This document shows, piece by piece, positions 6,887 to 54,479 of a stretch of 64,000 nt of DNA. A model generated the notes under the pieces. It saw only the letters and a program-made list of their open reading frames with translations. It did not search any database and was not told where the DNA came from. The position numbers were made by a program, and so were the translations under genes. Numbering within the stretch: the stretch's first letter is position 1; every line of letters starts with the position of its first letter. Source of the DNA: an uncultured bacterium (lineage in GTDB: Bacteria; Patescibacteriota; Minisyncoccia; Phycocordibacterales; UBA9973); the NCBI GenBank assembly GCA_903892035.1, contig CAITGV010000001.1, positions 419,310 through 483,309 on the forward strand, given 5' to 3'.

Positions 6887-7273
6887 TTACGAATACAAAG
6901 ACAACCCTTTCCCAGCTGGAGCGTGGATATGGGTATGATGCCCGCCTGCAGAAGTATTTCGGGCAGGTATGCGATTTAATACTAAGCGGTAGCCACCAAG
7001 AGGCCCTTTGAGCCACTTTGCAATGCGGGCGATAGTAGTAGAAGAAAGGCCAGTTTTGTCGCTTATAGAGCTGTATTGAGCGTCACGCGAGAGAAGGCGA
7101 GCGGCTTCGAGTCGATTGCCAAATTCATTGATTTCTTGGGGTGTCATAAGGTCGCGCATAAAAATCTTTGCTTCACCGGCATTTTTAAGAGAAAGAAGGG
7201 CGTCGACAAGTTGCCTTGCTTCTTTGCCATTCCAATTGATTTCTATAGTTTTTTTCTCGTTTTTATCTGACAT
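6887..7273 (-). CDS. YerC/YecD (TrpR-related, HisR-like) transcriptional regulator
   Basis: FMRDLMTPQEI...RLEAARLL...Y..I...TGLSSTTIARIAKWL...GGY. Confidence 0.9.
   Translation of the reverse strand: MSDKNEKKTIEINWNGKEARQLVDALLSLKNAGEAKIFMRDLMTPQEINEFGNRLEAARLLSRDAQYSSISDKTGLSSTTIARIAKWLKGPLGGYRLVLNRIPARNTSAGGHHTHIHAPAGKGLSLYS
6938..6970 (-). repeat. In-frame palindromic element in yerC-like gene (IPARNTSAGGH)
   Basis: Minus strand ATACCTGCCCGAAATACTTCTGCAGGCGGGCAT, GC-rich and self-complementary, just after the conserved domain. Confidence 0.55.
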
Positions 7274-7278
7274 ATCTC

Positions 7279-7316
7279 GACTTTAGCAAACTAAAGTACT
7301 TTAGTCAAGTAAAGTA
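7279..7316. promoter_or_regulatory. Two overlapping palindromic operators ACTTTA-N6-TAAAGT upstream of the yerC-like gene
   Basis: GACTTTAGCAAACTAAAGTA (7279-7298) and TACTTTAGTCAAGTAAAGTA (7297-7316), starting 5 nt upstream of the ATG. Confidence 0.75.
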
Positions 7317-7371
7317 GAAAGATACCTGTGGATAAATTGTTTTTAGCTAGTGATTGGACTATAATATAAAG

Positions 7372-9965: not shown

Positions 9966-11264
9966 ATGAACAAGTACGCCCATATTTTTAAGGGTAAAAA
10001 GGTCACAATAATGGGTCTTGGGCTCCTCGGTAAAGGTTTGGGAGACGCTATTTTTCTAGCGAAAGCTGGTGCAATTTTGACTATTACAGATTTGAAAAAT
10101 GAAAAAGAATTGGCACCATCTTTGGATAAATTAAAAAAATATAAAAATATAAAGTATGTTTTAGGTAAACATGAAATTTCAGATTTTGAAAATTGCGATT
10201 TTGTTCTAAAAGCTCAAGGTGTACCGCTAAATTCTCCATACATTGAGCATGCAAGAAAAAGTAAAATTCCAATAAGAATGGATGATGAATTATTTATTTC
10301 TTTACTACCCAAAAATGTAAAAGTTGTCGGTGTGACTGGCACAAGAGGGAAGACAACTGTAGCATCTTTAATTTTTCACATTTTAAAAAGTTCAGGTAAA
10401 AAAGCTCATCTTGGTGGAAATATTCGTGGTCTCGCTACTCTTTCACTTTTGCCAAAAATAAAGTCTGGAGATATTGTTGTGCTCGAGCTTTCTTCGTGGC
10501 AACTGCAAGGTTTTCATGAGCAAAAAATTTCTCCAAATATTTCTGTGTTTACAAATTTTATGGATGATCATATGAATTATTATTCTTCACGAAAGGAATA
10601 TTATTACGACAAATCTGCAATTTATGCCTACCAGAAAAAAGGCGATATTTGCGTTGTTGGTAGTTCACTTGGTAGTTTCACTACCAAGTCGAAGAAAATT
10701 ATTGCAGAATCCAATGATGTGCCAAAAAATTGGAAATTACCTTTGGTTGGAGAACATAATTTAGAAAATATTTCTTTGTCTGTTGCAGTTGTGAAAGCGT
10801 TAAGAATACCAATAATAAAAATAAAAAAAGGAGTAGAGAGTTTTAAGGCTGTCGAAGGACGATTGCAATTAGTGAAAAAAATAAAAGGTGTGGGAATTTA
10901 CAATGACAACAATTCTACAACACCAGAAGCCACAGTCGCAGCGCTCAAAGCATTTCCAAATAAAAATATAATTTTAATTATGGGCGGAGCAGATAAAGGT
11001 CTTGATACAAAAGAATTAATAAAGACTATTTTAAAATATACAAAAAAAGTTATTTTGCTTCCAGGAACTGGCACTGAGACATTACCCACACTCACACGAA
11101 CCGTTCTTGCGAGTAGTTTACAAGATGCAGTAAAGAAAGCATTGGAATTTGCAGAAAAAGGAGATGTGATTTTATTTTCACCAGCTTTTGCTTCATTTGG
11201 TTTATTTAAAAATGAATATGATAGAAATGATCAATTTATGAATATTATTAAAAAATTAAAATAA
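9966..11264 (+). CDS. murD: UDP-MurNAc-L-Ala--D-Glu ligase
   Basis: GVTGTRGKTT, LGGNI, ELSSWQL, SPAFASF. Confidence 0.95.
   Translation: MNKYAHIFKGKKVTIMGLGLLGKGLGDAIFLAKAGAILTITDLKNEKELAPSLDKLKKYKNIKYVLGKHEISDFENCDFVLKAQGVPLNSPYIEHARKSKIPIRMDDELFISLLPKNVKVVGVTGTRGKTTVASLIFHILKSSGKKAHLGGNIRGLATLSLLPKIKSGDIVVLELSSWQLQGFHEQKISPNISVFTNFMDDHMNYYSSRKEYYYDKSAIYAYQKKGDICVVGSSLGSFTTKSKKIIAESNDVPKNWKLPLVGEHNLENISLSVAVVKALRIPIIKIKKGVESFKAVEGRLQLVKKIKGVGIYNDNNSTTPEATVAALKAFPNKNIILIMGGADKGLDTKELIKTILKYTKKVILLPGTGTETLPTLTRTVLASSLQDAVKKALEFAEKGDVILFSPAFASFGLFKNEYDRNDQFMNIIKKLK
11090..11114 (+). repeat. Degenerate in-frame hairpin in murD (TLTRTVLAS)
   Basis: ACTCACACGAA-CCG-TTCTTGCGAGT, 9 of 11 pairs, CCG loop as in the RAYT-flanking hairpins. 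Confidence 0.4.
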
Positions 11265-13228: not shown

Positions 13229-16219
13229 ATGAATTTTAATGAAGGATATAAAAAATTAAACAAAGCACAAAAGGAGGCAGTTGATACTATCGATGGTCCG
13301 GTCATGGTTGTGGCGGGGCCGGGGACGGGTAAGACTCAGATATTGGCACTGCGTATTGCAAATATTTTACAAAAAACTGATACACCAGCTTCGGGGATTT
13401 TGTGTCTGACTTTTACAAACTCTGGAGTGAAAGCAATGCGAAGTCGTCTCGAGGCATATATTGGCACGCGAGCAAGAGAAGTAAAGATAATGACATTTCA
13501 CAGCTTCGCACTTTCGCTTATTGAAAAATATTATATCTATCTAGATTTTCCTATTGAGCCGAAATTGCTCGATGACGGAGAAGCAGTTTTGATTGCCGAT
13601 GAATTGCTTCATGGCAATGATTGGGAATATTTGCGACCACGTAGCAATCCCACAATGTATTTCCGTGATATAAAAAATCTCATTTCAAATCTAAAAAGAG
13701 ATGGTGTTAAACCTTTGGACTTTTGTGCAATTATCGATGCAGAAATTGAAAATATAAAAAATGATGAAAATAGTATTTCAAGTCGTGGAGAGACAAAGGG
13801 ACAATTGAAAAAAGAAGTTGAGAAAAAAATAGAATCACTAATGCGTACTCGTGAGGTGGTGAGTTTTTATGAAAAATATGAAGAAATAAAAAAAGAGAAA
13901 TGTGTAATTGACTATGACGATGTTCTCGAACTTCTTGTTACTCTTGTTGAGACCTCAGAAGATGTACGTTCAGAAATGCAAGAAGAAAATTTATATGTGC
14001 TTGTAGACGAACATCAAGATTCATCTGGAATACAAAATAAGTTTTTGCAGGCAGTTTGGAAAGGCGAAGAACAGCCAAATATTTTTGTTGTGGGAGATGA
14101 TCGCCAGCTTATATATGGATTCTCAGGAGCATCTGTTTCGTATTTTGAAGAATTTGCGCATATGTTTGGTGATGCAAAATGTATAACACTCACTGAGAAT
14201 TATCGCTCAACTGGAAAAATTTTAGCTCTTGCGGATGACTTACTCACAAGTACTGTGGCAAAAGCGAAATTGCATAGCAATAAAATGGGGGACATTGCAC
14301 CCGAGCTTTCAGAATACACTTATCCTCGTGATGAAATAATTGGCGCTGGTTTGTATTTTAAAAAGAAAATAGCGGAAGGTGTATCGCCATCTGAATGTGC
14401 AATACTTTTGCCAAAAAATAAACACGTACGTACAGCTTCAAATATTTTACGAGATATGGGCATACCAGTATTGTCTGAAAAAAATACAGCACTTTTTTCT
14501 TGCCCTGAAACTCAAAGTGTTTTGAAAGTTTTGCGAATAATGATTTCACCTTATGATGATATTTTAATTTCAAATATCATTCTCGATGATGCAAGTGGTA
14601 TACCATCTTTGATTGCACATAAATTTTTGAAAAGTCTTGGTTATGAAAAATGTACTCTCGAGCATTTAGTAAAAGCAGGAAGTGGTGACGGACTTTTTGT
14701 GGAATCAAATCCAATTGCAAATTTTGGCAAAAAAATAATGTCGTGGACAGAGCTTTTGTCACATGAAAGAATTTCAGCAATTGTGGCAACAGTAGGAAAT
14801 GAGCTCTTGATTGATACAGTAAAAGATCATGAGCAACTAATTCGCAGAGTTGAAATAGTTCGCAGTCTTATTCACGCAGGTATTTCTTGGGAAGAAAAAA
14901 ATCCGCGAGGAACCCTTGCTGAATTTTTGGAATATTTTTCGCGCCTCGAAGTTTATGACAATATTATAGAGCTTGCGAGTCTCGGTGGTGCAAAGGGTGT
15001 TTCTGTAATGACTCTTCATAAATCAAAAGGTCTCGAATTTGAGTACGTTTGGGTAGCGCATATGAATGAAGAGATTGTAATGTCTGAAAAGAAAAATAAT
15101 TTTACTCTTCCAGAAAAGATAAAAGGAATGGTTGAAAAAAGAGATGAGCTCACAGCCAAAAGGGAATTATACGTTGCTATTACTCGCGCAAAGAGTGAGT
15201 GTACGGTATCGTATGCAGAAAAAGGTTACAATGGAAGTGAAATGACCCTCGCTAGTATTGTTGAAGATATACCAAAAGAACATTTTGTAAAAGTGTCTTC
15301 TAGTGAAAACGAAGAGTTAATACTTTCTGATACTCCAGTGCACTATATTGCCAAGCCAGTAGAAAATGTTTCGACTGATAATATGGAGAAAGTAAAAGAA
15401 TTTGTATGTGAACGTTATGGCGAGACAAAAGTTTCTGTTACACTTTTGAATAATTTTTTTGAATGTCCATGGAAGTGGTATTTTAGGAATTTCTTGCGAT
15501 TACCTGATATGAAAACCGTTTCTCTTTCACTCGGTTCTGCTGTGCATGCAACTCTAGAATTTATTCTCAAAGACCTGTCTGCGCAGGCAGGAAAAGAACT
15601 TCCTAGTGAAGAAAAGATAAATGAAAAAATTGTAGAAGAATTGATAAAAAATCAAGTAAAAGACGATAAAGAAATAACACGTCTTACAAAAGATGGTTTG
15701 AAAGCAGTAATGAATTGGGTGGATGTTTATTACAAAAATTTGGCAAAAGAATATTTCACCGAACGCTCTATTTCATATAGAGATCAAGTTTTTCCAAATC
15801 TGACAATGTATGGAAAAATTGACCTTACTGAAAAATATCCAGACGGCACATATATGGTGACAGATTTTAAAACTGGTTCATCGAAAACTACAGGAATGAT
15901 AGAGAAAATTTCTGAAGAGGGAAGACTTTCAGATTTAATGCGTCAGCTCGCAATGTATTCATATCTCATAGCTGGTGCCGAGAAAGGCAAACACGTGAGT
16001 GTATCGCGCCTGCTTTTCCTTGAAGCACCCAAGACTGATAAAAATGCTGTATATGGCACTCACGTAGACAATGAGAAAATAGACTTACTAAAAAAAGATA
16101 TTAGTGAATACGATGAATTACTTAAATCTGGTGAGTGGACAAATCGACCTTGTAACTTTAATTCTTACGGAAAAAATACTGAATGCGAATATTGTGCACT
16201 GGCTAGTAAAATATATTAG
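13229..16219 (+). CDS. UvrD/PcrA-like SF1 helicase fused to PD-(D/E)XK nuclease (AddA/AdnAB-like)
   Basis: AGPGTGKT, LVDEHQD, VGDDRQ, ENYRS, TLHKSKGLEF, YVAITRA; C-terminal GKID..DFKTG, QLAMY and Cys cluster. Confidence 0.92.
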   Translation: MNFNEGYKKLNKAQKEAVDTIDGPVMVVAGPGTGKTQILALRIANILQKTDTPASGILCLTFTNSGVKAMRSRLEAYIGTRAREVKIMTFHSFALSLIEKYYIYLDFPIEPKLLDDGEAVLIADELLHGNDWEYLRPRSNPTMYFRDIKNLISNLKRDGVKPLDFCAIIDAEIENIKNDENSISSRGETKGQLKKEVEKKIESLMRTREVVSFYEKYEEIKKEKCVIDYDDVLELLVTLVETSEDVRSEMQEENLYVLVDEHQDSSGIQNKFLQAVWKGEEQPNIFVVGDDRQLIYGFSGASVSYFEEFAHMFGDAKCITLTENYRSTGKILALADDLLTSTVAKAKLHSNKMGDIAPELSEYTYPRDEIIGAGLYFKKKIAEGVSPSECAILLPKNKHVRTASNILRDMGIPVLSEKNTALFSCPETQSVLKVLRIMISPYDDILISNIILDDASGIPSLIAHKFLKSLGYEKCTLEHLVKAGSGDGLFVESNPIANFGKKIMSWTELLSHERISAIVATVGNELLIDTVKDHEQLIRRVEIVRSLIHAGISWEEKNPRGTLAEFLEYFSRLEVYDNIIELASLGGAKGVSVMTLHKSKGLEFEYVWVAHMNEEIVMSEKKNNFTLPEKIKGMVEKRDELTAKRELYVAITRAKSECTVSYAEKGYNGSEMTLASIVEDIPKEHFVKVSSSENEELILSDTPVHYIAKPVENVSTDNMEKVKEFVCERYGETKVSVTLLNNFFECPWKWYFRNFLRLPDMKTVSLSLGSAVHATLEFILKDLSAQAGKELPSEEKINEKIVEELIKNQVKDDKEITRLTKDGLKAVMNWVDVYYKNLAKEYFTERSISYRDQVFPNLTMYGKIDLTEKYPDGTYMVTDFKTGSSKTTGMIEKISEEGRLSDLMRQLAMYSYLIAGAEKGKHVSVSRLLFLEAPKTDKNAVYGTHVDNEKIDLLKKDISEYDELLKSGEWTNRPCNFNSYGKNTECEYCALASKIY
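15574..15591 (+). repeat. In-frame 18-bp palindrome in helicase-nuclease (DLSAQAG)
   Basis: CCTGTCTG-CG-CAGGCAGG, GC-rich island in an AT-rich gene. Confidence 0.6.
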
Positions 16220-23082: not shown

Positions 23083-23814
23083 ATGGAACAAGAACAAAAA
23101 GGACAATTACACCCGCTTACAATCCTTGCAAATGAGGCCATGGAAGTATTTTCTGAGATGGGCTTTGAGGTGGCTACGGGGCCTGAGCTTGAAACCGAGT
23201 GGTACAACTTCGACGTATTAAATGTTTCAAAAAATCATCCTGCTCGTGATATGCAAGATACATTTTGGATTAAACCCTCTCCTTTACAAGGAGAGGGTGA
23301 AGGGAGAGGTGAATTCGTTCTCCGTACTCACACAACTAGTGTTACGGCTCGAGCAATAGAGCAAGCCGGAAAAGATGGACGTATTCCTTGCGCTTTTATT
23401 TCTATCGGAAAAGTTTTTCGTAATGAATCGACAGATGCAACACATGAAATGCAATTTTTTCAGATTGATGGTGCGATGATTGGCGAAAATATAAATCTCG
23501 CAAATATGAAAGCAGTATTAATTAAATTTTATAAAAAAGCTCTTGGTGAAGATATTGAAATAGAATTTCGACCAAGTTTTTTTCCTTTTACAGAACCATC
23601 AGTCGAAGTCCATGCCAAATTTAATGGTAAATGGCTCGAGATGATGGGTGGAGGAATGATTCATCCACAAGTTTTAAAAAATCTTGGAATTGATTCAGAA
23701 AAATATCAAGGCTTTGCTTTTGGTGGAGGACTCGACCGTATCGCAATGATTCGCTGGAATATTCCCGATGTCCGTCTTTTTTATCAAGGTGATCTTCGTC
23801 TTAATCAATTTTAA
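23083..23814 (+). CDS. pheS: Phenylalanine--tRNA ligase alpha subunit (lacks N-terminal coiled coil)
   Basis: HPARDMQDTF, LRTHT, FRNE..DATH, FPFTEPS, GLDRIAM. Confidence 0.96.
   Translation: MEQEQKGQLHPLTILANEAMEVFSEMGFEVATGPELETEWYNFDVLNVSKNHPARDMQDTFWIKPSPLQGEGEGRGEFVLRTHTTSVTARAIEQAGKDGRIPCAFISIGKVFRNESTDATHEMQFFQIDGAMIGENINLANMKAVLIKFYKKALGEDIEIEFRPSFFPFTEPSVEVHAKFNGKWLEMMGGGMIHPQVLKNLGIDSEKYQGFAFGGGLDRIAMIRWNIPDVRLFYQGDLRLNQF
23274..23310 (+). repeat. Family A in-frame element in pheS (PSPLQGEGEGRG)
   Basis: ACCCTCTCCTT-TAC-AAGGAGAGGGT-GAAGGGAGAGGT between DTFWI and LRTHT. Confidence 0.9.
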
Positions 23815-23817
23815 CTT

Positions 23818-25743
23818 ATGAAAATTTCTTACAATTGGCTCAAATGGTATACACCCGACGCACCTACTCCAGAAAAACTGGCGGATATTTTTACATATCA
23901 TTTGACGGAAGTCGAGTCCGTCACCCCCTCGCCTTTACAAGGAGAGGCCGTAGACAGGAGTCTATCAATTTCAGATAGACGGGCAGGGGGAGAGGTAATT
24001 TTTGATTTAAATATTTTACCAAACCGAGCTCACGATTTGCTTTCACATCAGGGCATAGCACGTGAACTTGCAGGACAATTGGAAATTCCTTTCAATGACC
24101 CAACTTCTAAATACAAGATCCCCGCCGTCGCTAAAGCTTTGGTGGGCAAGCAAGAATTAAATATTAATATTCAAACTCCAAATTGTCGCCGTTATATGGG
24201 GCGTATTGTTCGTGGAATAAAAGTCGGTCCTTCACCAGACTGGGTTGTAAAACATCTGGAATCAATTGGCCAGCGAAGTATAAACAACATCGTCGATGCG
24301 ACAAATATTGTAATGTTTGACTGCGGACAGCCATGTCATGCTTTTGATTTGCGCAAAATAAAAGATTCAAAAATTGAAGTTGGACCTGCTCAAGATGGAA
24401 AAGAATTGGAATTACTTGGTTCAGAGAAAATTGTTGCGAAACTAAAAAATACCGATACGGTGATTGCAACTCCCTCGCCTTTACAAGGAGAGGGTCGGGG
24501 AGAGGTGCTTGCTCTTGCTGGTGTGAAGGGTGGTACAAATTCTGGTATTGCCCTAGATACAACTGAAATAGTTCTTGAAGTCGCAAATTTTGATTCGACA
24601 GCAGTGCGCAAGACTGCACGTAGGCTTGGAATTCTTTCTGATGCAGCAAAAAGATTTGAAAATGATTTATCTCCAGAGCTTTGTGATTTTGCAATGCTTG
24701 AACTTTCAGCTTTGATCGCGGAAGTTGCCTGTCCTGAGCGACCGGAGGGAGTCGAATGGGAAGAAATTATAGATGAGTATCCTGTAAAACAAACAGAAAG
24801 AAAAATAGAAATTTCTACAGAATTAATAAATAAAAAACTTGGTACAGATTTTAGTATAGATGAAATTGAAAATGTTTGGAAGAGATATAATTTTAAATAT
24901 GAAAAAAATGAAAGTTCTTTTACTATCACTCCATCAGCGTTACGCCTTGATTTAGTAATTCCAGAAGATTTAGTCGAAGAAGTGGGAAGAATTTTAGGCT
25001 ATGACAAAGTTGTGCCAGTACTTCCTAAAATTAATTTTACCCCTAAAATAAATGAAACTTGGACAAAGATTGCAAGTGCTCGCAACAAACTTATCGCTGA
25101 CGGATATAGAGAAGTGATGACTTATGCTTTTACTGACAAAGGTGATGTACAAGTACTTGCAAGTGCGAGTGATAAAAAATATTTGAGAACAAATATTTCT
25201 GAAGGTTTGAAAAAAAGTATTGCACTCAATCAGATCAACGCACCTTTGCTTGGTATAGATAAAGTAAAAGTTTTTGAAATTGGAACAGTTTTTTCTAAAG
25301 GTAAAGAAATTGTAAATTTAGCATATGGAGATAAAAAAAATGTGACTGAAGTTACCCTAGATGAATATATAAATACAACCCCACCTAACCTCCCCTTGTC
25401 AGGGAAGGAAACTGCTGTGCATTCTATTCCCCCTGATAAGAGGGATAAAGGGGGTTTTTTCAAAATGTGGAGCGCCTTCCCATTCATTTCTCGAGACATT
25501 GCTCTCTGGGTTCCAGCAGACACGAGTGCAGAAAGTGTTGCTGAAGTTATCAATAAAGATATTGGCGACTTGCTCGTAAAAGGTCCCGACATGTTTGACC
25601 AGTTCAAAAAGGAAGACAAGCAAAGCTATGCTTTTCGTCTCGTTTTCCAATCCTTCGACCGCACGCTGACCGACGAAGAAATCAATCCTATAATGGAATC
25701 TATTACCAAAAGAATAGGGGAAAATGGTTGGATGGTGCGCTAA
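23818..25743 (+). CDS. pheT: Phenylalanine--tRNA ligase beta subunit (shortened, with five insertion sites)
   Basis: PNRAHDLLSHQGIARE, INNIVDATN, GQPCHAFD, DLVEEVGRI.GYD, RDIA, RTLTDEEI. Confidence 0.95.
   Translation: MKISYNWLKWYTPDAPTPEKLADIFTYHLTEVESVTPSPLQGEAVDRSLSISDRRAGGEVIFDLNILPNRAHDLLSHQGIARELAGQLEIPFNDPTSKYKIPAVAKALVGKQELNINIQTPNCRRYMGRIVRGIKVGPSPDWVVKHLESIGQRSINNIVDATNIVMFDCGQPCHAFDLRKIKDSKIEVGPAQDGKELELLGSEKIVAKLKNTDTVIATPSPLQGEGRGEVLALAGVKGGTNSGIALDTTEIVLEVANFDSTAVRKTARRLGILSDAAKRFENDLSPELCDFAMLELSALIAEVACPERPEGVEWEEIIDEYPVKQTERKIEISTELINKKLGTDFSIDEIENVWKRYNFKYEKNESSFTITPSALRLDLVIPEDLVEEVGRILGYDKVVPVLPKINFTPKINETWTKIASARNKLIADGYREVMTYAFTDKGDVQVLASASDKKYLRTNISEGLKKSIALNQINAPLLGIDKVKVFEIGTVFSKGKEIVNLAYGDKKNVTEVTLDEYINTTPPNLPLSGKETAVHSIPPDKRDKGGFFKMWSAFPFISRDIALWVPADTSAESVAEVINKDIGDLLVKGPDMFDQFKKEDKQSYAFRLVFQSFDRTLTDEEINPIMESITKRIGENGWMVR
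23923..23996 (+). repeat. Family A element in pheT interrupted by a second hairpin element (nested)
   Basis: CCCTCGCCTTTACAAGGAGAGG [CCGTAGACAGGA-GTCTATC-AATTTCA-GATAGAC-GG] GCAGGGGGAGAGGT. Confidence 0.85.
24121..24150 (+). repeat. Family C in-frame element in pheT (PAVAKALVGK)
   Basis: CCCGCCGTCGCTAAAGCTTTGGTGGGCAAG; 22/27 identical to the gyrB copy at 27673. Confidence 0.8.
24469..24506 (+). repeat. Family A in-frame element in pheT (TPSPLQGEGRGEV)
   Basis: ACTCCCTCGCCTTTACAAGGAGAGGGTCGGGGAGAGGT. Confidence 0.9.
24727..24759 (+). repeat. Family B in-frame element in pheT (ACPERPEGVEW)
   Basis: GCCTGTCCTGAGCGA-CCGGAGGG-AGTCGAATGG; matches the reverse complement of the kbl copy at 37128. 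Confidence 0.75.
25377..25456 (+). repeat. Inverted doublet of family A-like (CCCCT-GATAAG-GGG) elements in pheT
   Basis: AACCCCACCTAACCTCCCCTTGTCAGGGAAGGA ... TTCCCCCTGATAAGAGGGATAAAGGGGGTT, encoding PPNLPLSGKE...IPPDKRDKGG. Confidence 0.75.
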
Positions 25744-36561: not shown

Positions 36562-37845
36562 ATGTATAGTAAAAAAATTATTGACGATATAAATAAAGAA
36601 CTTGAAAACTTGAAGGTGCAGGGGAAGTTTAAGGTGGAAAGGGAATTGGAAGGACCGCAGGGGCCGGAGGTTTTGATTGGGGGGAAGAAGGTTTTAATGT
36701 TCGGTTCAAATAATTATTTGGGACTTTCAAATCATCCTGCACTCGTTGAAGCTAGTAATGAATATCAAAAAAAATACGGCTACGGACTTTCGTCTGTACG
36801 TTTTATTTCTGGTACGCAAAATATTCACAGAGAATTGGAAAAAAAGTTGGCAGAATTTCTAGGCACAGAAGATGCGATTTTGTATTCGACAAATTTTATG
36901 TCGAACCTTGGATTTTTTGCGAGCATTGTAAATGAGCCATTTCAGAAATTGGTAGTCGGAGTACCAATTGGTACTCCGACTACCAATTATAAAGATGCAA
37001 TATATAGTGATGCACTGAACCACGCGAGTATTATCGATGCATTTAAACTTTGTAATCGCGAGCGTCTAGAAAAAAGAATTTATCCGCACAAAGATTTGAC
37101 GACGTTGCGCCAAATGCTTGAGGAAGACACTTCGACTTCGCTCAGTGCAGGCAATTCTAAAGATATTCGAAATAAAATAATAGTGACTGACGGAGTATTT
37201 TCAATGGAAGGCGATACTGCAGACCTCGCAGAGCTTGTAAAAATTGCAGAAGAATTTGGCGCAATGCTTTTTGTCGACGATGCACATGCGGTAGGAGTAT
37301 TGGGTGAAAATGGAACAGGTACGGCTGAACATTGTGGAGTTTTTGGGAAAGTAGATGTAATTTCTGGAACATTTGGAAAAGCACTTGGTGGTGCGGTCGG
37401 CGGGTATATTGCAGGTAAAAAAGAAATTGTAGAATTTTTAAGACAAAAATCTCGCACATATATGTTTTCAAATTCTGTGCCACCTGCTGTCATAGGTGCC
37501 ACACTTCGCGCACTCGAACTTTTGAAAGAAGATAATAATTTACTTATTGCAGTAAAAGATAATGCAAAATATTTTCGAGATGGTTTGGAAAAACTTGGTT
37601 TTAAAACTCTTCCAGGGAGCCATCCTATAGTTCCACTAATGATTGGTGATGCAAAGCTGACGCAAGAGATGAGTAAAAAACTTTTGGAAAATGGAATTTA
37701 CGTCGTGGGACTTTGGTTTCCTGTTGTTCCGGAAGGTCATGCACGTTTGCGTTTTCAAATTTCCGCCGCGCATACAAAAGCTCACATCGACCAAGCTCTC
37801 ACCGTCCTCGAAAAAATTGGAAAAGAAATGGGCGTCATAAATTAA
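36562..37845 (+). CDS. kbl: 2-amino-3-ketobutyrate CoA ligase (glycine C-acetyltransferase)
   Basis: SNNYLGL, SVRFI.GT, LNHASIID, DGVFSM.G, DDAH, TFGKA, PVVP. Confidence 0.9.
   Translation: MYSKKIIDDINKELENLKVQGKFKVERELEGPQGPEVLIGGKKVLMFGSNNYLGLSNHPALVEASNEYQKKYGYGLSSVRFISGTQNIHRELEKKLAEFLGTEDAILYSTNFMSNLGFFASIVNEPFQKLVVGVPIGTPTTNYKDAIYSDALNHASIIDAFKLCNRERLEKRIYPHKDLTTLRQMLEEDTSTSLSAGNSKDIRNKIIVTDGVFSMEGDTADLAELVKIAEEFGAMLFVDDAHAVGVLGENGTGTAEHCGVFGKVDVISGTFGKALGGAVGGYIAGKKEIVEFLRQKSRTYMFSNSVPPAVIGATLRALELLKEDNNLLIAVKDNAKYFRDGLEKLGFKTLPGSHPIVPLMIGDAKLTQEMSKKLLENGIYVVGLWFPVVPEGHARLRFQISAAHTKAHIDQALTVLEKIGKEMGVIN
36947..36988. repeat. Perfect 42-bp palindrome in frame in kbl
   Basis: AATTGGTAGTCGGAGTACCAA|TTGGTACTCCGACTACCAATT. 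Confidence 0.95.
37128..37152 (-). repeat. Family B element in frame in kbl (TSTSLSAG), opposite orientation to the pheT copy
   Basis: Reverse complement GCCTGCACTGAGCGAAGTCGAAGTG. Confidence 0.75.
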
Positions 37846-38438: not shown

Positions 38439-41333
38439 ATGATATCTCGCATTTATGTAATCCCCACAGCAAATAAGCACGTTTCAATTATTGATTCATA
38501 TACAATAGATGCGGATTTGAGTAGTGTGGAAATTGAAAAAATTGCGCAAGCTCTGAAAAATCCAGTAATTGAAAAATATTCTGTAAATAAATTTTCTTTA
38601 GATTCAAAATGTAATTTTATTATTGAAATTGGATATTTACCTGGAGTTACAGACAATGTAGCAAAGTCCGCGATGGAAATGATTGTAGATTTACTCGGCC
38701 GACCATTTAAAGATGGCGAAGCAGTTTATACTTCAAAAGTACATTTAACAAACATTAACAATGCTTCGGAACTTTACAACCCTTTAATTGAACGAGCCAG
38801 CATTTCACCCTCCCATTTACAAAGGGAGGGCAAGGGAGAGGTGAGTTTACCCCTAACTGTTCCGAAAGTTGTATTACCTAAAAAAATACCAGTAATAGAA
38901 GTTTCTTTAAATATTTCAGATGATGAATTGGTTCGTATTGGAAAAGCTGGAATTGTGGATGAGGGTGGTGCACGTGGACCTCTTGCCCTTGATTTAATGT
39001 CAATGAAAACAATTCAAGAGCATTTCAAAAAACTTGGCAGAAATCCTACAGACATCGAACTCGAATCTTTGGCGCAAACTTGGAGTGAACATTGTAAACA
39101 TACAATTTTTGCAAATCCAATAGATGAAATAAAAGATGGTTTGTATAAGACATATATAAAAGGTGCAACAAATGAAATAAGAAAAATGAAAGGCAAGAAT
39201 GATTTTTGTGTTTCAGTTTTTTCTGATAATGCTGGTGGAATAATTTTTGATGAAAAATATTTAATTACACACAAGGTTGAAACTCATAATAGTCCTTCAG
39301 CGCTTGATCCATTTGGCGGAGCCATTACAGGTATCGTCGGAGTAAATCGCGATACGATGGGTTTCGGCCTCGGTGCAAAACCAGTGGCAAATGTTTTTGG
39401 TTTTTGTTTTGGTTATCCAGACGATGTGCGCCCACTTTATCGTGATAAAAATAAAACTCAAAAAATGCTTCCACCGAAGCGTATTGTCGATGGTGTGATA
39501 AAAGGAATTAATGCGGGCGGAAATTGCTCTGGTATTCCTACTGTATCGGGTTTTATTCGCTACGATGAACGTTTTCGTGGAAAGCCTTTAGTTTTCGCTG
39601 GAACTGTCGGTCTTATTCCAAAAAAAGTTGGAGGAAGACTTTCTCATGAAAAATCTGCTCAACCGGGAGACTATATTGTAATGGCGGGTGGGCGAGTGGG
39701 TGCCGATGGAATTCATGGTGCAACATTTTCTTCTGTGGTGATGGATACTGCATCTCCTGCAACAGCTGTGCAAATTGGCGACCCAATCACTCAGAAAAAA
39801 ATGAGCGATGCAATAGTAAAAGAAGCACGCGACATGGGATTATATTCAAGCATTACTGACAACGGTGCAGGAGGAATTTCTTGTTCTGTGGCAGAGATGG
39901 CAAAAGAATGTGGTGGGCTTGTTGTAGATATTGAAAAAGTTCCACTTAAATATCCAGGGTTAACACCATGGCAAATTTGGATTTCAGAATCCCAAGAACG
40001 CATGACACTTTCTGTGCCAAAAGATAAATGGGAAAGTTTTAAAAAATTAATGGACAAACGTGGCGTAGAAGCGACAGTGATTGGCGAATTTACAAATTCT
40101 GGAAAATGCATCGTGCGGCAAAATGGAAAAATTATTATGGACTTAGCACTTTCATTTTTGCACGATGGTTTACCAAAGCGCCCATTGTTTACAAAAAAAG
40201 TTGCTCATCTTCACAAAGAACCAAAAATGCCAAATGGAATTTCTCGAACTTCTTCACTTTTGAGTTTATTGAGTGAAGGAAATATCGCAGGATTTGAATG
40301 GGTATCGGAACAATATGATCATGAAGTTCAAGCGGGCTCAGTTATAAAACCGCTCGTTGGTCGCGGAAAAATAAATTCTGAAGCTCAAGTTTTTAGACCA
40401 TTACTTTCTTCTCAAAAAGGTGTAGTGCTTTCGACTGGTGTATATCCTTCGTATTCTGACATCAGTACTTACGCAATGGCAATGTGTGCACTAGACACTG
40501 CTGTACGAAATTCTATTGCCACAGGAGGAACACTTTCACATCTCGCAATTCTTGATAATTTCTGTTGGTGTTCTTCGTATGATGAAGAACGTCTTGGTGA
40601 ACTTGTGGCATCTGTGCGAGCTTGTTACGACGGGGCTGTATTTTACGGTACTCCTTTTATTTCTGGAAAAGACAGTATGTTCAATGATTTCAAAGGTTAT
40701 GATGAAAAAGGAAATCCTGTCGCGATTTCAATTCCGCCAACGCTTCTCATTTCAGCAATTGGAGTCGTGCCAGATATAAAAAAAGTTGTAAGTCCAGATT
40801 TTAAAATTGCTGGGGATACAATATATTTAATTGGTGAGACAAATGATGAGCTTGGAGCGTCGGAATATAATAAGATGCTCGCAAAAGGTAGTGGTGCAAT
40901 AGGCAACAATGTTCCAGTTGTTAATTTAGAAAAAAATAAAAAAACATATCTCGCACTTGAAAATGCAATAAAAAAAGAATTAATTGCTTCGTCTACAGCA
41001 CTTACATCTGGTGGACTTGCTGTCGCACTTTCAAAATCTGCTGTTGCTGGCGGACTTGGTTTTTCAGTATCTCTAAAAAATATTGTGGGTAATGCAGAAA
41101 ATGTTGATGCACAGCTTTTCTCGGAAAGCCAAGGACGTATTCTAGTAACAGTTTCAAAGAAAAATATTTCAGCTTTTGAAAAGGCAATGAAAGGCGTCGC
41201 TCTTTCAAGATTGGGAACAGTATCAAAAACAAATATTTGCATCATCAGTGACAAGCAAGGCAAAAAAGCAGTAGATACAACAGTTCAAAAACTTTCAAAT
41301 TCATATCACAGTTTTAGTAAAAAAATGACATAA
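38439..41333 (+). CDS. purL: FGAM synthase subunit PurL with PurS-like N-terminal extension
   Basis: PGVTD, QTWSEHCKH, KVETHNSPS, DNGAGG, SESQERM, SGKDS. Confidence 0.95.
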   Translation: MISRIYVIPTANKHVSIIDSYTIDADLSSVEIEKIAQALKNPVIEKYSVNKFSLDSKCNFIIEIGYLPGVTDNVAKSAMEMIVDLLGRPFKDGEAVYTSKVHLTNINNASELYNPLIERASISPSHLQREGKGEVSLPLTVPKVVLPKKIPVIEVSLNISDDELVRIGKAGIVDEGGARGPLALDLMSMKTIQEHFKKLGRNPTDIELESLAQTWSEHCKHTIFANPIDEIKDGLYKTYIKGATNEIRKMKGKNDFCVSVFSDNAGGIIFDEKYLITHKVETHNSPSALDPFGGAITGIVGVNRDTMGFGLGAKPVANVFGFCFGYPDDVRPLYRDKNKTQKMLPPKRIVDGVIKGINAGGNCSGIPTVSGFIRYDERFRGKPLVFAGTVGLIPKKVGGRLSHEKSAQPGDYIVMAGGRVGADGIHGATFSSVVMDTASPATAVQIGDPITQKKMSDAIVKEARDMGLYSSITDNGAGGISCSVAEMAKECGGLVVDIEKVPLKYPGLTPWQIWISESQERMTLSVPKDKWESFKKLMDKRGVEATVIGEFTNSGKCIVRQNGKIIMDLALSFLHDGLPKRPLFTKKVAHLHKEPKMPNGISRTSSLLSLLSEGNIAGFEWVSEQYDHEVQAGSVIKPLVGRGKINSEAQVFRPLLSSQKGVVLSTGVYPSYSDISTYAMAMCALDTAVRNSIATGGTLSHLAILDNFCWCSSYDEERLGELVASVRACYDGAVFYGTPFISGKDSMFNDFKGYDEKGNPVAISIPPTLLISAIGVVPDIKKVVSPDFKIAGDTIYLIGETNDELGASEYNKMLAKGSGAIGNNVPVVNLEKNKKTYLALENAIKKELIASSTALTSGGLAVALSKSAVAGGLGFSVSLKNIVGNAENVDAQLFSESQGRILVTVSKKNISAFEKAMKGVALSRLGTVSKTNICIISDKQGKKAVDTTVQKLSNSYHSFSKKMT
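38807..38842 (+). repeat. Family A in-frame element in purL (PSHLQREGKGEV)
   Basis: ACCCTCCCATTTACAAAGGGAGGGCAAGGGAGAGGT. Confidence 0.85.
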
Positions 41334-42005: not shown

Positions 42006-42007
42006 TT

Positions 42008-43711: not shown

Positions 43712-43713
43712 TT

Positions 43714-45484: not shown

Positions 45485-45800
45485 CCCCGTAGTAGATTTT
45501 TGACTCGATTATGTTCTATGTATATTGCCTAGAAAGTGAAAAATATGATGAACTTTATTTTGGTTATACCAATGATCTTAAACGTAGATTTAAAGAACAT
45601 AATCAGAAGTTAAATTTTTCAACAAAAAGATATGCACCATGGAAAATTATTTACTACGAAGCATGTTTAAACGAAAGTGATGCAAAAAGACGTGAGAAAT
45701 ATTTAAAAACTACGCAAGGTGGCAGAATGATAAAAATTAGATTAAAAGAATATTTTTATGAAAAAAGAAAAATTTAACAAGTCAAAAATTCACTACAGGG
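45485..45800 (+). mobile_element. 316-bp element: GIY-YIG gene bounded by 21-bp imperfect terminal inverted repeats, in the purQ 5' end
   Basis: Left CCCCGTAGTAGATTTTTGACT (45485-45505); reverse complement of right (45780-45800) CCCTGTAGTGAATTTTTGACT, 18/21; AGAA on both sides. Confidence 0.75.
45511..45777 (+). CDS. Small stand-alone GIY-YIG nuclease
   Basis: FYVYCL...YFGYT.DL.RR..EHN....ST....PW...YYE......A..RE..LK. Confidence 0.92.
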   Translation: MFYVYCLESEKYDELYFGYTNDLKRRFKEHNQKLNFSTKRYAPWKIIYYEACLNESDAKRREKYLKTTQGGRMIKIRLKEYFYEKRKI

Positions 45801-46606
45801 AGAAGCCCAAAGTAATTGTCCTTTCTGGATATGGTTTAAACTGCGAGGAGGAGACAAAATTCGCTTTTGAGCACGCAGGTGGAGTGGCGGATATTGTGCA
45901 TATAAATGATTTGATTGAAAATCCAAAACAACTTTTGAAATATAATATTTTGGCTTTTCCTGGCGGATTTTCTTATGGTGACGATATGGGAAGCGGAAAA
46001 GCTTTTGCGAGTAAGATAAAAAATCACTTAAAAAAAGAATTCGAGGAATTTTTGGCAGGAGATACTTTGGCAATAGGTATTTGTAATGGTTTTCAAATAA
46101 TGACGAGTTTGGGGATTTTACCCGGGGCTTTGGCGCACAATGAAGGTGGGCGATATATAGATAGGTGGGTGGATTTAGAAGTCCCACCCTCTTCCTTAAT
46201 AAGGAGAGGGCCGGGGAGAGGTTCTTCGCCATGGACCAAAGGCATTAAGAAAATTTCTCTTTCAATTGCGCATGGAGAAGGCAGATATATTACAACAGAA
46301 AAAGAATATAAAAATTTGTTGAAGGAAAATAGAATTGCATTTAAATACGTAGAAGGAGAGATGTGTAAATACCAAAATTTGAAAGCAAATCCAAATGGTG
46401 CAATGCATGCAACAGCGGGCGTTTTGGGTTATAATGGCAGAGTCCTCGGTATGATGCCTCACCCAGAGAGGGCGATGTTTTTCACACAGAGGCCAGATTG
46501 GGAATTGCAGAAGGAAGTATTGAAAAGAAAGGGTAAAAAAATTTCAGACGAAGGAGCTGGGATTTTATTGTTTAAAAATGCGGTTAGGTATTTTACAAAA
46601 GCATAA
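45758..46606 (+). CDS. purQ: FGAM synthase glutaminase subunit PurQ
   Basis: G.NCEEET, PGGFSYGD, GICNGFQ, AHGEG, NPNG, GMMPHPER. Confidence 0.95.
   Translation: MKKEKFNKSKIHYREKPKVIVLSGYGLNCEEETKFAFEHAGGVADIVHINDLIENPKQLLKYNILAFPGGFSYGDDMGSGKAFASKIKNHLKKEFEEFLAGDTLAIGICNGFQIMTSLGILPGALAHNEGGRYIDRWVDLEVPPSSLIRRGPGRGSSPWTKGIKKISLSIAHGEGRYITTEKEYKNLLKENRIAFKYVEGEMCKYQNLKANPNGAMHATAGVLGYNGRVLGMMPHPERAMFFTQRPDWELQKEVLKRKGKKISDEGAGILLFKNAVRYFTKA
46186..46222 (+). repeat. Family A in-frame element in purQ (PSSLIRRGPGRG)
   Basis: ACCCTCTTCCTTAATAAGGAGAGGGCCGGGGAGAGGT. Confidence 0.88.
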
Positions 46607-51900: not shown

Positions 51901-53154
51901 AGGAATACTTCAGAAATTATAGAAAAATCTACAGCTTCAGGGTATGGCGAAGCAATAATAATCATCAGAGATAGAGGCCAATTTAATCGTACGGAAAAAG
52001 GACAACCCATAGAAAAAGGTCAAGATAAATTGGAGTTATTTAAGACTCGTGCTTTGGGCGAGGACCATTATGGTATCAGGACTGGTTTTGGTTCGACCGA
52101 GATTGATGCGTTGCTGGCCAAGGATAATGTAATACAAAATAGCAAACAGCTAGATTCGCTGAAGTTCTCAATAGCGCAAAAGGGCTTCTATATACCTATC
52201 TGCGATAAAACAGGCAAGGTTATTTTTACTGCCGATGAATATGAAGAATACAAGAAAATATTTGCTGGTGTTGATAAATATCATGGTGAGGAAATCAGCT
52301 TACGGGAAGACTGGAAAAATTCTAAATTCAGCGAAGACATTAGCAAGTTTTCTCAAACTAACGAAAATCTTGATAATATTAACAAGATTAAGGATGATAT
52401 TTATTCTGATATTGAAAGTGACCTGAAAACTTTTGGAATTGAGCTTCATAAAGGACGTTACGACGATAGCGTTGTGGGAGCAAAGATAATCGATACAGGC
52501 TCTACTGGTCGTGGTGCAGCCCTCGACGAAGGATATGATCTTGACTTTGTTATTAAGGTCGACGATCGGGATGCAGATAAGATTAGTCAAATGGCTGAAA
52601 ATTTGAAAAAGAAGTATCCATATGATCAAGATTATGAAAGAGATGGCATGAGAACGTATAGGTTTAAGAGTTTTGAAAAAGATGGAAACAAAATTGACTT
52701 GGATATTAGTTTTGTCAAAAAATCAGACAGTGAAGAACTTGATGCAAATGAAGCCGTCGCGCAGAAGTACGACTCTATCAAAAAATCTTCAGGAGAAGAT
52801 AAGTTACTTGATGTTCTAACAAATGTCAGATTTGCAAAAAAGGAGTTGAAGGAAGCAGGTTGCTATAAGAAAGGAATGACTGGTAATGGAGAACAACAAG
52901 GCGGAATGGGTGGCATTGGCGTTGAAAACTGGATATTGCAAAATGGTGGAGATGCGGTGGATGCATTTAGAGATTTCAATAAAAATGCTTACCAAGATGG
53001 TGAACTCGTATCATTTAATGACTTCAAGAAAAAATACAAGATCTTCAGCGCTGGTAGCAATATACGAGGCGGAGTCAAGGCAGAAAACTTCGTTTATAAT
53101 ATGGATGAAACAGGCTATAATAAAATGGCTGAACTTTCGAAGAAGTTTATTTAG
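48934..53154 (+). CDS. Large acidic protein with C-terminal class I (pol-beta superfamily) nucleotidyltransferase domain
   Basis: IIDTGSTGRG.....YDLDFVIKV (GS + DxD), DLDISF, VRFAKK.LK..G.Y, GGMGGIGVE..I. Confidence 0.75.
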   Translation: MASREEKKKIENKETKKVVASNKEGKEVSQEEFLNIANAEKSKFEEETKNALQNLNSVDLDEHTFNEIKNENKIEEALGENLKEANAVIENAKKSLEGAEFNRDKCLYDLKAKIENANSLEEIVSAVTIVLESQKDREDLKMLFNNFKFKASELTSDGKESLVKDYFGDIVKTITESLSDPRNVEQVKNTDLVDIKKQSIEALSDIVPPTLQGQESPEYLKMLEKIQSKIVVPEYNLSEFVDFLNQYNEVSKGREGTFDKFIFKDFPKKKDDFFHVKNEINYLLQDPLALEKIDFIDKSSLNKTLNLFDGDEFYRTEYGGPEKAEFLEDSNILKMPDYKKGVNIFNTEYVQTERANKLHGLSLGSLKLAKNNEYFDIKTKYSSGAPTINLITEEELKKIHDFDSNLKELDLYQMEYFKENVENLPQDIKDFYQKVYNEQNYSGNFSAVANKSFFELAKSPENLNKIKKCFESRLISTIYDNNYIERVAELDEKIIDLMIETGEGLNANIELLEKVAGLNDPDKEKYKEIVAGYSLLSNYDKLETTEYVQRIKEIPAEEMDFFLKWQNTQGNKCYFGIKKLTGPLDDALYRKEDFSKLVEFHNSSPDADSLIFDFFAKNDPYVSDIVRNIETYGKNPKKFFTDNPKDVIKNFDEIQKLLASRGESLNQEELNSIFNYTLKSSPQMFLEKISFPLSPEQQKVIDIFTKISNSPSSEMKNMALELSLQIVEGGDLSTIDERYEKIDSIFVRNNIPFVGKQAKICEALHPQIVTQNNSSPELQSLHSNNARRLLIFKDLMLTNFNSLNSNLEQYLLVFKSGQEVLDKYESGEQLSGDEEEKLKYFFKKINALSENTKKTDKFNKFDLEDLSLTENLQALKSNFGVGENQTIIGKFEDTFLKRIGISNFSEALKRYDDLREAVSNRNKQLAESGQINLGENDLAKGISIDYFDKNLDRGIYAPEFIGAETIEAKGKSKGSDSTPWDTDLIMVGNRNTSEIIEKSTASGYGEAIIIIRDRGQFNRTEKGQPIEKGQDKLELFKTRALGEDHYGIRTGFGSTEIDALLAKDNVIQNSKQLDSLKFSIAQKGFYIPICDKTGKVIFTADEYEEYKKIFAGVDKYHGEEISLREDWKNSKFSEDISKFSQTNENLDNINKIKDDIYSDIESDLKTFGIELHKGRYDDSVVGAKIIDTGSTGRGAALDEGYDLDFVIKVDDRDADKISQMAENLKKKYPYDQDYERDGMRTYRFKSFEKDGNKIDLDISFVKKSDSEELDANEAVAQKYDSIKKSSGEDKLLDVLTNVRFAKKELKEAGCYKKGMTGNGEQQGGMGGIGVENWILQNGGDAVDAFRDFNKNAYQDGELVSFNDFKKKYKIFSAGSNIRGGVKAENFVYNMDETGYNKMAELSKKFI

Positions 53155-53168
53155 ATTAACCAACATAT

Positions 53169-54479
53169 ATGCAAAAACAGAAAATTTTAATAATAGGTGG
53201 AGGAGGACGTGAGCATGCGGTCGGGTGGAAAGTGGCGCAGTCGCCGAGAGCGGGTGAGCTGTTTTTTGCGCCCGGCAATGCGGGTACTGCGACACTTGGT
53301 ACAAACGTACCTATTTCTGCTACAGATATTCCTGCACTTATTAATTTTGCAAAAAAAGAAAATATTGATTTAACCTTGGCTTTGCCGGATGATCCACTTT
53401 CACTCGGTATTGTTGATCAGTTTAATGCCGAAGGTCTACGAATCTGGGGACCAACAAAAGCTGCCGCTCAACTTGAATCTTCGAAAGCTTATGCAAAAGA
53501 TTTTATGAAAAGGCACAATTTGCCTACAGCAAAATTTGAAACATTTACTGATTTTGAAAAAGCAAAAGAATATGTAGCAAATGGGTCGTTGCCAGTCGTA
53601 ATCAAAGCAAGTGGTTTGGCGCTCGGGAAAGGTGTGGTTATTTGTGAGACTCTCAATCAAGCAAATGAAGCATTGGAAAATATGCTCGTGAAAAAAGTTT
53701 TTGGCGAATCTGGTGCGACTGTCGTGATTGAAGAGTTTTTATTAGGTCCAGAAATTTCCATTCATGCATTTTGTGACGGAGAAAATTATAAAATATTTCC
53801 TTCCGCTCAAGATCATAAAAGAGTAGGTGTTGGGGACACAGGACCCAATACTGGCGGAATGGGTACAGTTGCACCAGTGCCATTTGCATCCACTGAATTA
53901 ATGAAAAAAATTGAAGAGAGTATTGTCGCTCCGACTTTGCGCGCAATGGTTGCGGACGGAATCCCATTTCAAGGTGTTCTTTTTCCAGGACTGATGCTGA
54001 CAAAAGATGGTCCTAAGATTTTGGAATTTAATGCACGCTTTGGCGACCCAGAAACACAATCTTTTATGCGTTTACTCGACACTGACCTGATTGAAATTAT
54101 TGAAGCGACACTCGATCATAAACTTAATGAAATAGAAATAAAATGGAAACCTTTATTCGCCTGCAACATTGTACTTGCATCTCTAGGCTATCCAGGGAAT
54201 TATGAAAAGGGGAAAGTGATTACGGGACTTGAGAAGTTTCCTCCCCTTGATAAGGGGGAGGTGCCAGAGGCGGAGGGGGTTGTATTATTTCATGCTGGTA
54301 CAAAGGCAGAAAATGGAGAACTTTTAACCAATGGCGGGCGGGTGCTCGGTGTATCAGCCACAGGAAATACACTTCCTGAAGCCCTAGAGAAAGCTTATAA
54401 AGCAATTGAGAGCATTAATTTCGATGGTATGCAATATCGCAAAGATATTGGAAAAAATGCGATGAAAATGCTAGAGTAA
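53169..54479 (+). CDS. purD: Phosphoribosylamine--glycine ligase
   Basis: GGGGREHA, APGNAG, KASGLALGKGV, GPNTGGMG, EFNARFGDPE, GGRVL. Confidence 0.98.
   Translation: MQKQKILIIGGGGREHAVGWKVAQSPRAGELFFAPGNAGTATLGTNVPISATDIPALINFAKKENIDLTLALPDDPLSLGIVDQFNAEGLRIWGPTKAAAQLESSKAYAKDFMKRHNLPTAKFETFTDFEKAKEYVANGSLPVVIKASGLALGKGVVICETLNQANEALENMLVKKVFGESGATVVIEEFLLGPEISIHAFCDGENYKIFPSAQDHKRVGVGDTGPNTGGMGTVAPVPFASTELMKKIEESIVAPTLRAMVADGIPFQGVLFPGLMLTKDGPKILEFNARFGDPETQSFMRLLDTDLIEIIEATLDHKLNEIEIKWKPLFACNIVLASLGYPGNYEKGKVITGLEKFPPLDKGEVPEAEGVVLFHAGTKAENGELLTNGGRVLGVSATGNTLPEALEKAYKAIESINFDGMQYRKDIGKNAMKMLE
54240..54281 (+). repeat. Family A-like in-frame element in purD (PPLDKGEVPEAEGV)
   Basis: CCTCCCCTT-GAT-AAGGGGGAGG-TGCCAGAGGCGGAGGGGGTT before the conserved FHAGT. 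Confidence 0.8.

Follow-up and report, generated by a model that had tools for sequence, protein, structure and literature searches.

Fifteen short palindromes lie inside conserved genes of a 64,000-nucleotide stretch of DNA (the whole stretch analysed, hereafter the window) from an uncultured CPR bacterium. Are they insertions, and if so, what put them there? The sites are as follows.

6939..6968, minus strand: in-frame palindrome of family J near the C-terminus of a yerC-like protein, +10 aa.
10667..10689, plus strand: murD, perfect 23-nt palindrome of family D, a variant of the REP of the RAYT at G000:C2:21098.
15574..15591, plus strand: UvrD/PD-(D/E)XK helicase-nuclease gene, 18-nt palindrome of family G, +6 aa.
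23275..23310, plus strand: pheS, BoxC/triplex-motif-like hairpin with a G-rich tail, family A, about +9 aa, matching a DUF559 flank.
23923..23997, plus strand: pheT site 1, family A element enclosing another palindrome, about +17 aa.
24121..24148, plus strand: pheT site 2, family I palindrome, about +5 aa, partner not found.
24469..24507, plus strand: pheT site 3, family A.
24727..24756, plus strand: pheT site 4, degenerate family H palindrome, about +5 aa.
25375..25455, plus strand: pheT site 5, inverted dimer of family B, the type found on both sides of the DUF559 gene at G000:C1:171210.
27673..27702, plus strand: gyrB, family I palindrome in a variable acidic loop.
36947..36988, plus strand: kbl site 1, perfect inverted dimer of family D, the REP of the RAYT at G000:C2:21098, about +10 aa.
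37129..37152, plus strand: kbl site 2, degenerate family H, +8 aa.
38805..38843, plus strand: purL, family A, mostly substituting for a variable loop.
46184..46225, plus strand: purQ, family A, in a loop with an insert in 14 of 77 aligned proteins.
54240..54281, plus strand: purD, double hairpin of family B2, in a loop where 8 of 65 aligned proteins have a longer insert.

A sequence-only reading had described palindromic segments that keep the frame in named core genes. This was borne out: all 15 sites (five in pheT, two in kbl and one in each of the other eight genes) are located in uninterrupted ORFs, and the host gene names are backed by Pfam/NCBIfam. With short flanks, the folding energies of the 15 sites lie between -6 and -34 kcal/mol, with weak folding at kbl site 2, gyrB and the helicase site. 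Strong coding hairpins (score ≥23) numbered 18, against 0 after synonymous-codon shuffling. At a score of ≥19 the numbers were 50 and 9.

The same reading took the segments for insertions, and alignment with orthologs upheld this for 12 of the 15 sites. Empty alleles exist: the site is empty in pheT of 21 relatives, in 22 pheS sequences covering it, and in 76 purQ, 65 purD, 78 purL (covering the site), 5 kbl, 12 helicase and 4 yerC orthologs. The other three sites did not fit as well. The murD palindrome substitutes for native codons and adds no length compared with 10 orthologs, purL gains fewer than 4 residues, and the gyrB site is an acidic loop of variable length among 24 orthologs. The inserts were placed in loops by ortholog length variation and by gaps against solved structures. 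The view that several unrelated mini-elements occupy variable protein loops is supported. Contigs from two other runs in the same study span the inserts of pheS, pheT sites 1, 2, 4 and 5, and gyrB with 0-1 differences, so these inserts are not assembly artefacts. Among the contigs of all three runs, from which rare variants are dropped, no empty allele was found.

A genome scan with the families, proposed in the sequence-only reading, detected 111 elements, with about 11 matches expected by chance. That reading saw no copies between genes. This holds for its listed families in the window; genome-wide, 58 of the 111 elements are intergenic. The genome is 92% coding, and element density is 0.89 per kb in intergenic DNA versus 0.071 per kb in ORFs, a 12-fold difference. 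The idea of a coding-specific system is thus contradicted. Coding copies fold no worse than intergenic copies (p=0.23 and 0.27). They occur in both orientations with uneven use of frames (26 copies, chi-square p=0.006), and in relatives both orientations and 5 of 6 frames are in use. The chosen frame was less hydrophobic than other open frames in 17 of 26 cases (p=0.17), and selection for less hydrophobic frames is not significantly supported. An Rfam scan of the window returned tRNAs only. A de novo search of intergenic DNA in relatives' loci gave only tRNA-like or ortholog-shared pieces, with a gene caller that may over-call ORFs. A four-helix-bundle gene was also observed at G000:C1:281322.

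To trace the families, we compared them with the flanks of small nuclease and transposase genes. Seven of the 15 sites match hairpins that flank DUF559 nuclease genes and are a variant of the E. coli BoxC/triplex motif. Two of 15 match the REP of a RAYT located on a different contig, and the remainder are GIY-YIG-linked or have no partner found. DUF559 is the partner of the largest family, and both DUF559 genes of the genome, at G000:C1:386104 and G000:C1:171210, are outside the window. The window itself contains one candidate gene of each of the other two classes:

27956..27974, plus strand: intergenic palindrome of family L upstream of the RAYT.
28001..28678, plus strand: RAYT-like Y1 transposase, one of five in the genome.
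28267..28291, plus strand: the RAYT's own REP, family E, in frame inside the RAYT gene.
45485..45801, plus strand: GIY-YIG cassette, a small GIY-YIG gene (45511-45777) flanked on both sides by inverted repeats of its own, each ~21 nt.

An origin from nuclease or transposase genes had been proposed, with these two genes as examples. The general proposal stands in that most families adjoin such genes; the examples do not, as the palindromes of RAYT 28001 and GIY-YIG 45511 match 0 of the 15 sites. Family E has a second copy at the RAYT stop (28672-28692) and a dimer in uvrB (G000:C1:8340-8397). A dimer of the family L palindrome lies in frame in recG (G000:C1:155138), and the copy at 27956..27974 may have an additional role as the gyrB terminator. 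The right repeat of the GIY-YIG cassette falls within an N-terminal extension of the purQ ORF, and in relatives the cassette is found at different loci.

In this genome, the gene's own palindrome brackets 2 of 2 DUF559 genes and 5 of 5 RAYTs, and is present at 2 of 3 small GIY-YIGs. In relatives, a family A/B match lies within 200 nt of 15 of 26 DUF559 loci, compared with 1 of 26 control windows. Among 60 relatives, family A was found in 16 and DUF559 in 10; of the 10 that have DUF559, 9 also have family A, compared with 7 of the 50 others, though kin are not independent in these counts. One of the seven relatives in which family A was found without DUF559 carries 16 copies. The notion that coding copies are fossils left after nuclease loss found no support, either in the coding share (12/32 without DUF559 versus 17/52 with, p=0.81) or in the folding comparison above. 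The GIY-YIG at G000:C1:160440 and its ortholog in L079 both have family H upstream, and a near-identical relative of family G, judged by eye, lies upstream of tRNA-embedded GIY-YIG genes in relatives. REP copies are in frame in kbl, atpG (the same family D dimer as kbl site 1), argS, ligA and uvrB. A check of flanking genes thus gave DUF559, RAYT and GIY-YIG partners; none was found for family I, for family J, which is a single copy in the genome census, or for the abundant family C. One DUF559 gene has 9 of the 36 family A/B copies within 30 kb of it (p=0.001). This sign of local spread is weak, because the other DUF559 gene has only 3 of 36 nearby and 11 of 71 other elements fall in the stretch around the first.

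In E. coli K-12, the DUF559 gene ycjD shares 42% identity with the DUF559 of the genome, and a triplex motif lies ~170 nt downstream of it. A relaxed three-block pattern gave 19 matches (18 distinct) in the genome and 0 in the control, and the reversed pattern gave 0 matches in 61 genomes. These results bear on the reading that no mobile element is involved, the palindromes being local template-switch mutations in variable loops or chance runs of GC-rich codons. The census matches expected by chance, the small or absent length gain in murD, purL and gyrB, and the weak folding at several sites would suit it. Near-identical repeats, however, occur in unrelated genes, in intergenic DNA and in other genomes, they adjoin specific nuclease genes, and a close variant exists in E. 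coli. We therefore regard this reading as very improbable overall; for families A, B, D, E and H the data largely rule it out, and it may apply to single-copy sites.

How do these elements compare with known systems? The comparison follows the available portions of the cited papers. Like the Rickettsia palindromic elements (RPE) and intragenic REPs, they are palindromes in frame in housekeeping genes, with several families per genome, partly coding and partly intergenic and probably tolerated in loops (PMC10969869, PMC3733652). The hallmark of the RPE type was found here: palindromes in many scattered copies that keep the frame of conserved genes, alongside orthologs that lack them. They differ from RPE, which we compared by description, in being 18-80 nt rather than ~150-nt units that encode one conserved peptide in a single frame, in having a CPR host and unrelated sequences, and in that candidate enzymes adjoin most families. 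Lineage-wide reuse of loops sets them apart from both; in the available text of PMC3733652, loop reuse is described only for recB of two Xanthomonas species.

With BoxC, PIT and TMECO they share a C-rich arm, a short loop, a G-rich arm and a second G-rich tail, and the occurrence of singles and inverted dimers (PMC4666352). As in that account, there is no replication-strand bias: an apparent bias of 16 forward versus 3 reverse became 9 versus 9 when set against GC skew (hand count). The strict TMECO consensus has 0 matches in the genome at ≤1 mismatch, so that the repeat here is a close variant. Of the 39 copies in this genome 14 are coding, as are 29 of the 84 that were classified in relatives, whereas 23 of 23 copies of the triplex motif in E. 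coli K-12 are intergenic (PMC4666352). DUF559 adjoins the motif here and likewise in E. coli; in the available text of PMC4666352 no mobilising gene was found and the origin is called unanswered.

The RAYTs resemble REPtrons and TnpA-REP systems, as Y1 HUH genes flanked by their own palindrome (5/5) and with copies inside the transposase gene as in subclass 2.4 (PMC6006769). By eye, no GTAG/GTGG 5' foot was seen on the REP flanks. The window RAYT scored 43.4 bits versus the NCBIfam REP-transposase cut-off of 80, and the other four gave no match. The GIY-YIG genes resemble Ssn with its NTS/SRM hairpins, a small single-domain gene in its own hairpins with dispersed copies (PMC11893778). The SRM pattern is unlike these families; a search with the first variable gap fixed at 1, which covers part of the pattern space, gave one genome match, away from all GIY-YIG genes. 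NTS lie inside genes in only 2% of cases (PMC11893778). The dominant partner here is instead the PD-(D/E)XK protein DUF559, which has been grouped with Vsr (PMC3424549).

To follow single loops through the lineage, we examined 80 relatives. In PurQ, PurD and PurL, individual loops hold inserts in taxa dispersed across the tree, and these inserts often belong to different families. GC-rich hairpins account for 75 of 171 sporadic inserts in PurL, PurQ, PurD and PurF, compared with 102 of 865 length-matched coding segments (12% background); for PurF alone, 0 of 24 inserts were hairpin-like. On the PurL tree, changes versus carriers at six sites were 13/14, 8/8, 13/15, 9/9, 6/6 and 11/11, gain and loss being indistinguishable in these counts. 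Carriers have empty sister taxa with high support. The loop of pheT site 3 in relative G003 also holds family A, in reversed orientation.

Some loops favour one family. Matches to DUF559 flanks make up 8/8 inserts at PurD~358, 12/15 at PurL~580 and 0/9 at PurL~875, and matches to GIY-YIG flanks 5/6 at PurL~491. Such preference counts against survival in tolerant loops as the full explanation, because tolerance alone does not predict it. It would fit site-directed insertion or in-place turnover, in which a family-specific short host target, or an older element acting as a landing site by nesting or gene conversion, matters beyond loop tolerance. The nested palindrome of pheT site 1 points the same way, as do four PurD sequences of one clade with a normal-length replacement of the same family. 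A search for relatives of the nested palindrome gave none above the reversed-sequence control. Yet PurQ~143 accepts several families, with DUF559-flank matches in only 5/14, and the carriers' sister taxa are empty. On balance we think this rather unlikely.

The host genes raise another alternative, that the host keeps the nucleases and core-gene hairpins as a domesticated signal, modulating uptake or recombination of incoming ssDNA as for Ssn/NTS in Neisseria, or as mRNA structures. By hand count, 30 of 42 host genes encode soluble core enzymes of replication, repair, translation and metabolism, versus 15 of 42 length-matched controls, and SsnA modulates transformation (PMC11893778). However, the patchy presence of family A and DUF559 among relatives, the failure of sister taxa to conserve sites and the depletion of copies in genes argue against it, and the enrichment could reflect the long residence of core genes. 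We consider a domesticated signal improbable.

We favour the reading that the inserts are probably non-autonomous copies from selfish nuclease-hairpin pairs, surviving in frame in tolerant loops. It builds on five observations: hairpin families pair with particular genes, their copies are dispersed, orthologs without the inserts exist, coding DNA is depleted of copies, and the same loops are used repeatedly. Mobilisation of the hairpins we infer. Each mini-element would comprise a small gene for a single-domain DNA-cutting enzyme (DUF559, HUH/Y1 RAYT or GIY-YIG) with its own hairpin on either side. Its enzyme would cut ssDNA at that hairpin, as Ssn GIY-YIG nucleases do at their flanking hairpins (PMC11893778). 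The hairpin would then be copied to new sites via repair or template switching, often with loss of a few host codons. As the genome is 92% coding, most landings would fall in genes, and selection would spare a copy only where it keeps the frame and falls in a tolerant loop of a soluble core enzyme. The added peptides would be tolerated passengers rather than adaptations.

A bolder extension, which we offer tentatively, is that DUF559/YcjD proteins are unrecognised hairpin- or triplex-specific nucleases that spread BoxC-type repeats, a third class beside RAYT and Ssn. In Paceibacteria, these three unrelated nuclease classes together might then be a main supplier of new loop sequence to core enzymes. 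Families would differ in where they prefer to land, and the same loops would be rewritten repeatedly lineage-wide.

Our literature search, which covered the main text of mostly open-access papers, returned no account of CPR or DUF559 in this role, and overlapping families may be present in Additional file 3 of PMC3733652 or the supplementary data of PMC11893778. The novelty is that of a variant of Rickettsia-type coding palindromes in a CPR host. For the E. coli triplex motif, a long-known orphan repeat, the K-12 DUF559 gene with its adjacent motif suggests a testable origin. In CPR core enzymes, selfish hairpins would represent a large share of lineage-specific loop insertions, by the count in the four purine enzymes. 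The candidate sequence- or structure-specific nucleases are of interest as tools, and the inserts bear on protein evolution in compact genomes and provide a map of natural insertion-tolerant sites.

The window spans positions 419310–483309 of contig C1 in G000, the host genome, which has 807 kb and 36% GC; our own gene caller predicted 790 genes and 92% coding DNA. Because its PurL relatives are mostly Nomurabacteria/Paceibacterota records, we assigned it to the CPR (Patescibacteria). The palindromes that the sequence-only reading had described inside conserved genes were confirmed: 15 sites lie within open frames, one each in yerC, murD, the helicase-nuclease gene, pheS, gyrB, purL, purQ and purD, two in kbl and five in pheT. 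With the stricter score, 18 strong hairpins were observed in coding DNA, compared with 0 after synonymous-codon shuffling. Alignment revealed empty sites: the window's peptides are absent from orthologs of pheT (21 relatives), pheS (22), purQ (76), purD (65), kbl (5), the helicase (12) and yerC (4). Twelve of the 15 sites are net insertions relative to orthologs. The murD site has zero length gain against 10 orthologs, the purL site gains fewer than 4 residues, and the gyrB site is within a variable acidic loop. By reading of the sequence, PurQ, Kbl and PheS seem to retain their catalytic motifs. Three runs of one study, one of them the likely source, carry the pheS, pheT and gyrB inserts with 0–1 differences. 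In-frame hairpin repeats in core genes of G000 are real.

At 243 aa and 641 aa, the PheS and PheT encoded in the window are of a short type. Many relatives (loci L026–L030 and other family members) have no PheT match and encode a 380–395 aa single-chain PheRS-like protein with a C-terminal anticodon domain, as in the mitochondrial type. A weak hairpin lies in a possible short insert of murI (window 9815–9842), with a similar stretch in the relative locus L051.

In a genome-wide census, hand-made patterns matched 111 elements, of which 58 are intergenic, 49 within ORFs and 4 near ORF starts; from shuffled genomes, about 11 matches would be expected by chance. The patterns were derived from the copies themselves, which makes singletons circular, and they missed three window sites (pheT 1, pheT 4 and purL). 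The earlier impression that no copies lie between genes was a window effect; density is 0.89 per kb in intergenic DNA versus 0.071 per kb in genes. Further hosts by pattern match include uvrB, ligA, recG, ruvC, topA, ftsK, tgt, pyrG, argS, alaS, ileS, gatB, atpG, tsaD and rsmH. In a hand count that includes three hosts without a domain scan (one is presumably leuS), soluble core enzymes made up 30 of 42 host genes versus 15 of 42 length-matched controls. Family C is abundant and mostly intergenic, with ten copies on contig C1 (e.g. 78977, 121792, 152814) and one at C2:120334; a search of G000 found no nuclease gene beside its copies.

G000 carries five Y1/RAYT genes, three small GIY-YIG genes and two DUF559 genes, and each RAYT and each DUF559 gene is bracketed by its own palindrome. 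The DUF559 flanks match seven window sites (pheS, pheT 1, pheT 3, pheT 5, purL, purQ and purD). Site 1 of kbl is a dimer of the REP belonging to the RAYT on contig 2, and the murD site is a REP variant resembling the REP of that RAYT's ortholog in locus L099. Site 2 of kbl and pheT site 4 are similar to a hairpin upstream of a GIY-YIG gene outside the window. In 3 of 29 relative loci, a GIY-YIG gene is lodged at a tRNA 5′ end, and the palindrome upstream of it is similar to the helicase-site family. For families I and J, a search for a partner nuclease gene found none. The window's own RAYT and GIY-YIG genes, proposed earlier as sources, have repeats that match 0 of the 15 sites; the REP of this RAYT occurs in frame in uvrB and within the RAYT gene itself.

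Other features of the window and its relatives were as follows.
Window 45485–45801: GIY-YIG cassette with inverted repeats, recurring at unrelated loci L245, L253 and L259; the right repeat extends into the purQ N-terminus here, and stops at the next gene's start codon in L253, L259 and a related cassette in L268.
L256, L258 and L262 (similarly L079 and L252): small GIY-YIG gene between a palindrome-interrupted duplicate tRNA 5′ fragment and the intact tRNA.
G000:C1:400177–402044: RAYT, then two PemK/MazF-like genes, with a copy of one shared 30-nt palindrome ahead of each.
Window 42002–45456: two tandem paralogous Cys-rich proteins (~570–590 aa) between purL and purQ; a paralog family recurs in 30 of 80 purL loci.
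Window 58454–61229: serine recombinase island beside a tRNA, with long inverted repeats.
Window 30826–30885: perfect 28-bp inverted repeat, its left arm overlapping a tRNA gene 3′ end.

DUF559, a putative nuclease, is classed with Vsr-like PD-(D/E)XK nucleases in PMC3424549. In a set of 60 same-family relatives, DUF559 was present in 10, family A in 16 and both in 9. A strict-pattern match lay within 200 nt of 15/26 DUF559 loci versus 1/26 controls; by eye, most of the remaining DUF559 loci have related hairpins. Like the E. coli triplex motif (TMECO), family A is built of three blocks, but it does not fit the strict TMECO consensus. E. coli K-12 ycjD is a DUF559 gene whose product is 42% identical to that of G000. 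TMECO copy 9 lies about 170 nt beyond ycjD on the downstream side, and the 3′ end of the gene carries a degenerate copy.

In the relatives, 29 of 84 classified matches were coding (114 in total, the unclassified being DUF559-flanking copies, overlapping duplicates, dimer partners, a cluster in genome G015, genome G021 and a few others). The idea that coding copies are fossils left after nuclease loss was not supported, since their share did not depend on DUF559 presence; where DUF559 is present, that share is inflated by the exclusion of the flanking copies.

Across 80 purL loci, extra residues occur at one loop each in 14/77 PurQ, 8/65 PurD and 15/80 PurL sequences. Carriers are scattered on a PurL tree (FastTree, insert columns removed), with 13, 8 and 13 changes, respectively, as raw counts that combine gains and losses. 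The PurQ loop received inserts from several families, the PurD and PurL~580 loops mostly DUF559-type inserts and the PurL~491 loop GIY-YIG-type inserts. GC-rich hairpins formed 75/171 sporadic inserts versus 102/865 matched segments; in PurF they formed 0/24. Coding copies occur in both orientations and use frames unevenly (26 copies, 3 orthologous duplicates dropped; p=0.006); a hydrophobicity test on the frame used by these 26 copies was not significant. Family preference by site, together with a nested element in pheT site 1, suggests that landing is not purely random.

Coding palindromes are described for Rickettsia in PMC10969869, and intragenic REPs for several species in PMC3733652. As separate systems, RAYT/REP, Ssn/SRM and the triplex motif are already known. 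Our literature search, which covered few subscription journals, found no CPR account and no DUF559–repeat link. This work adds family-by-family pairing in one genome, presence/absence counts, a hot-spot and site-preference analysis, and a fossil idea that failed its test.

The hairpins are paired with nuclease genes, dispersed, absent at empty sites, depleted in genes and repeatedly found in the same loops. The nuclease would cut at its hairpin, repair would copy the hairpin to new sites, and the extra peptides would be neutral. As precedents, Ssn cleaves ssDNA at flanking hairpins (PMC11893778) and TnpA-REP is specific for REP (PMC6006769). On balance we favor a model in which the inserts are probably copies from selfish nuclease–hairpin pairs, surviving in frame in tolerant loops.
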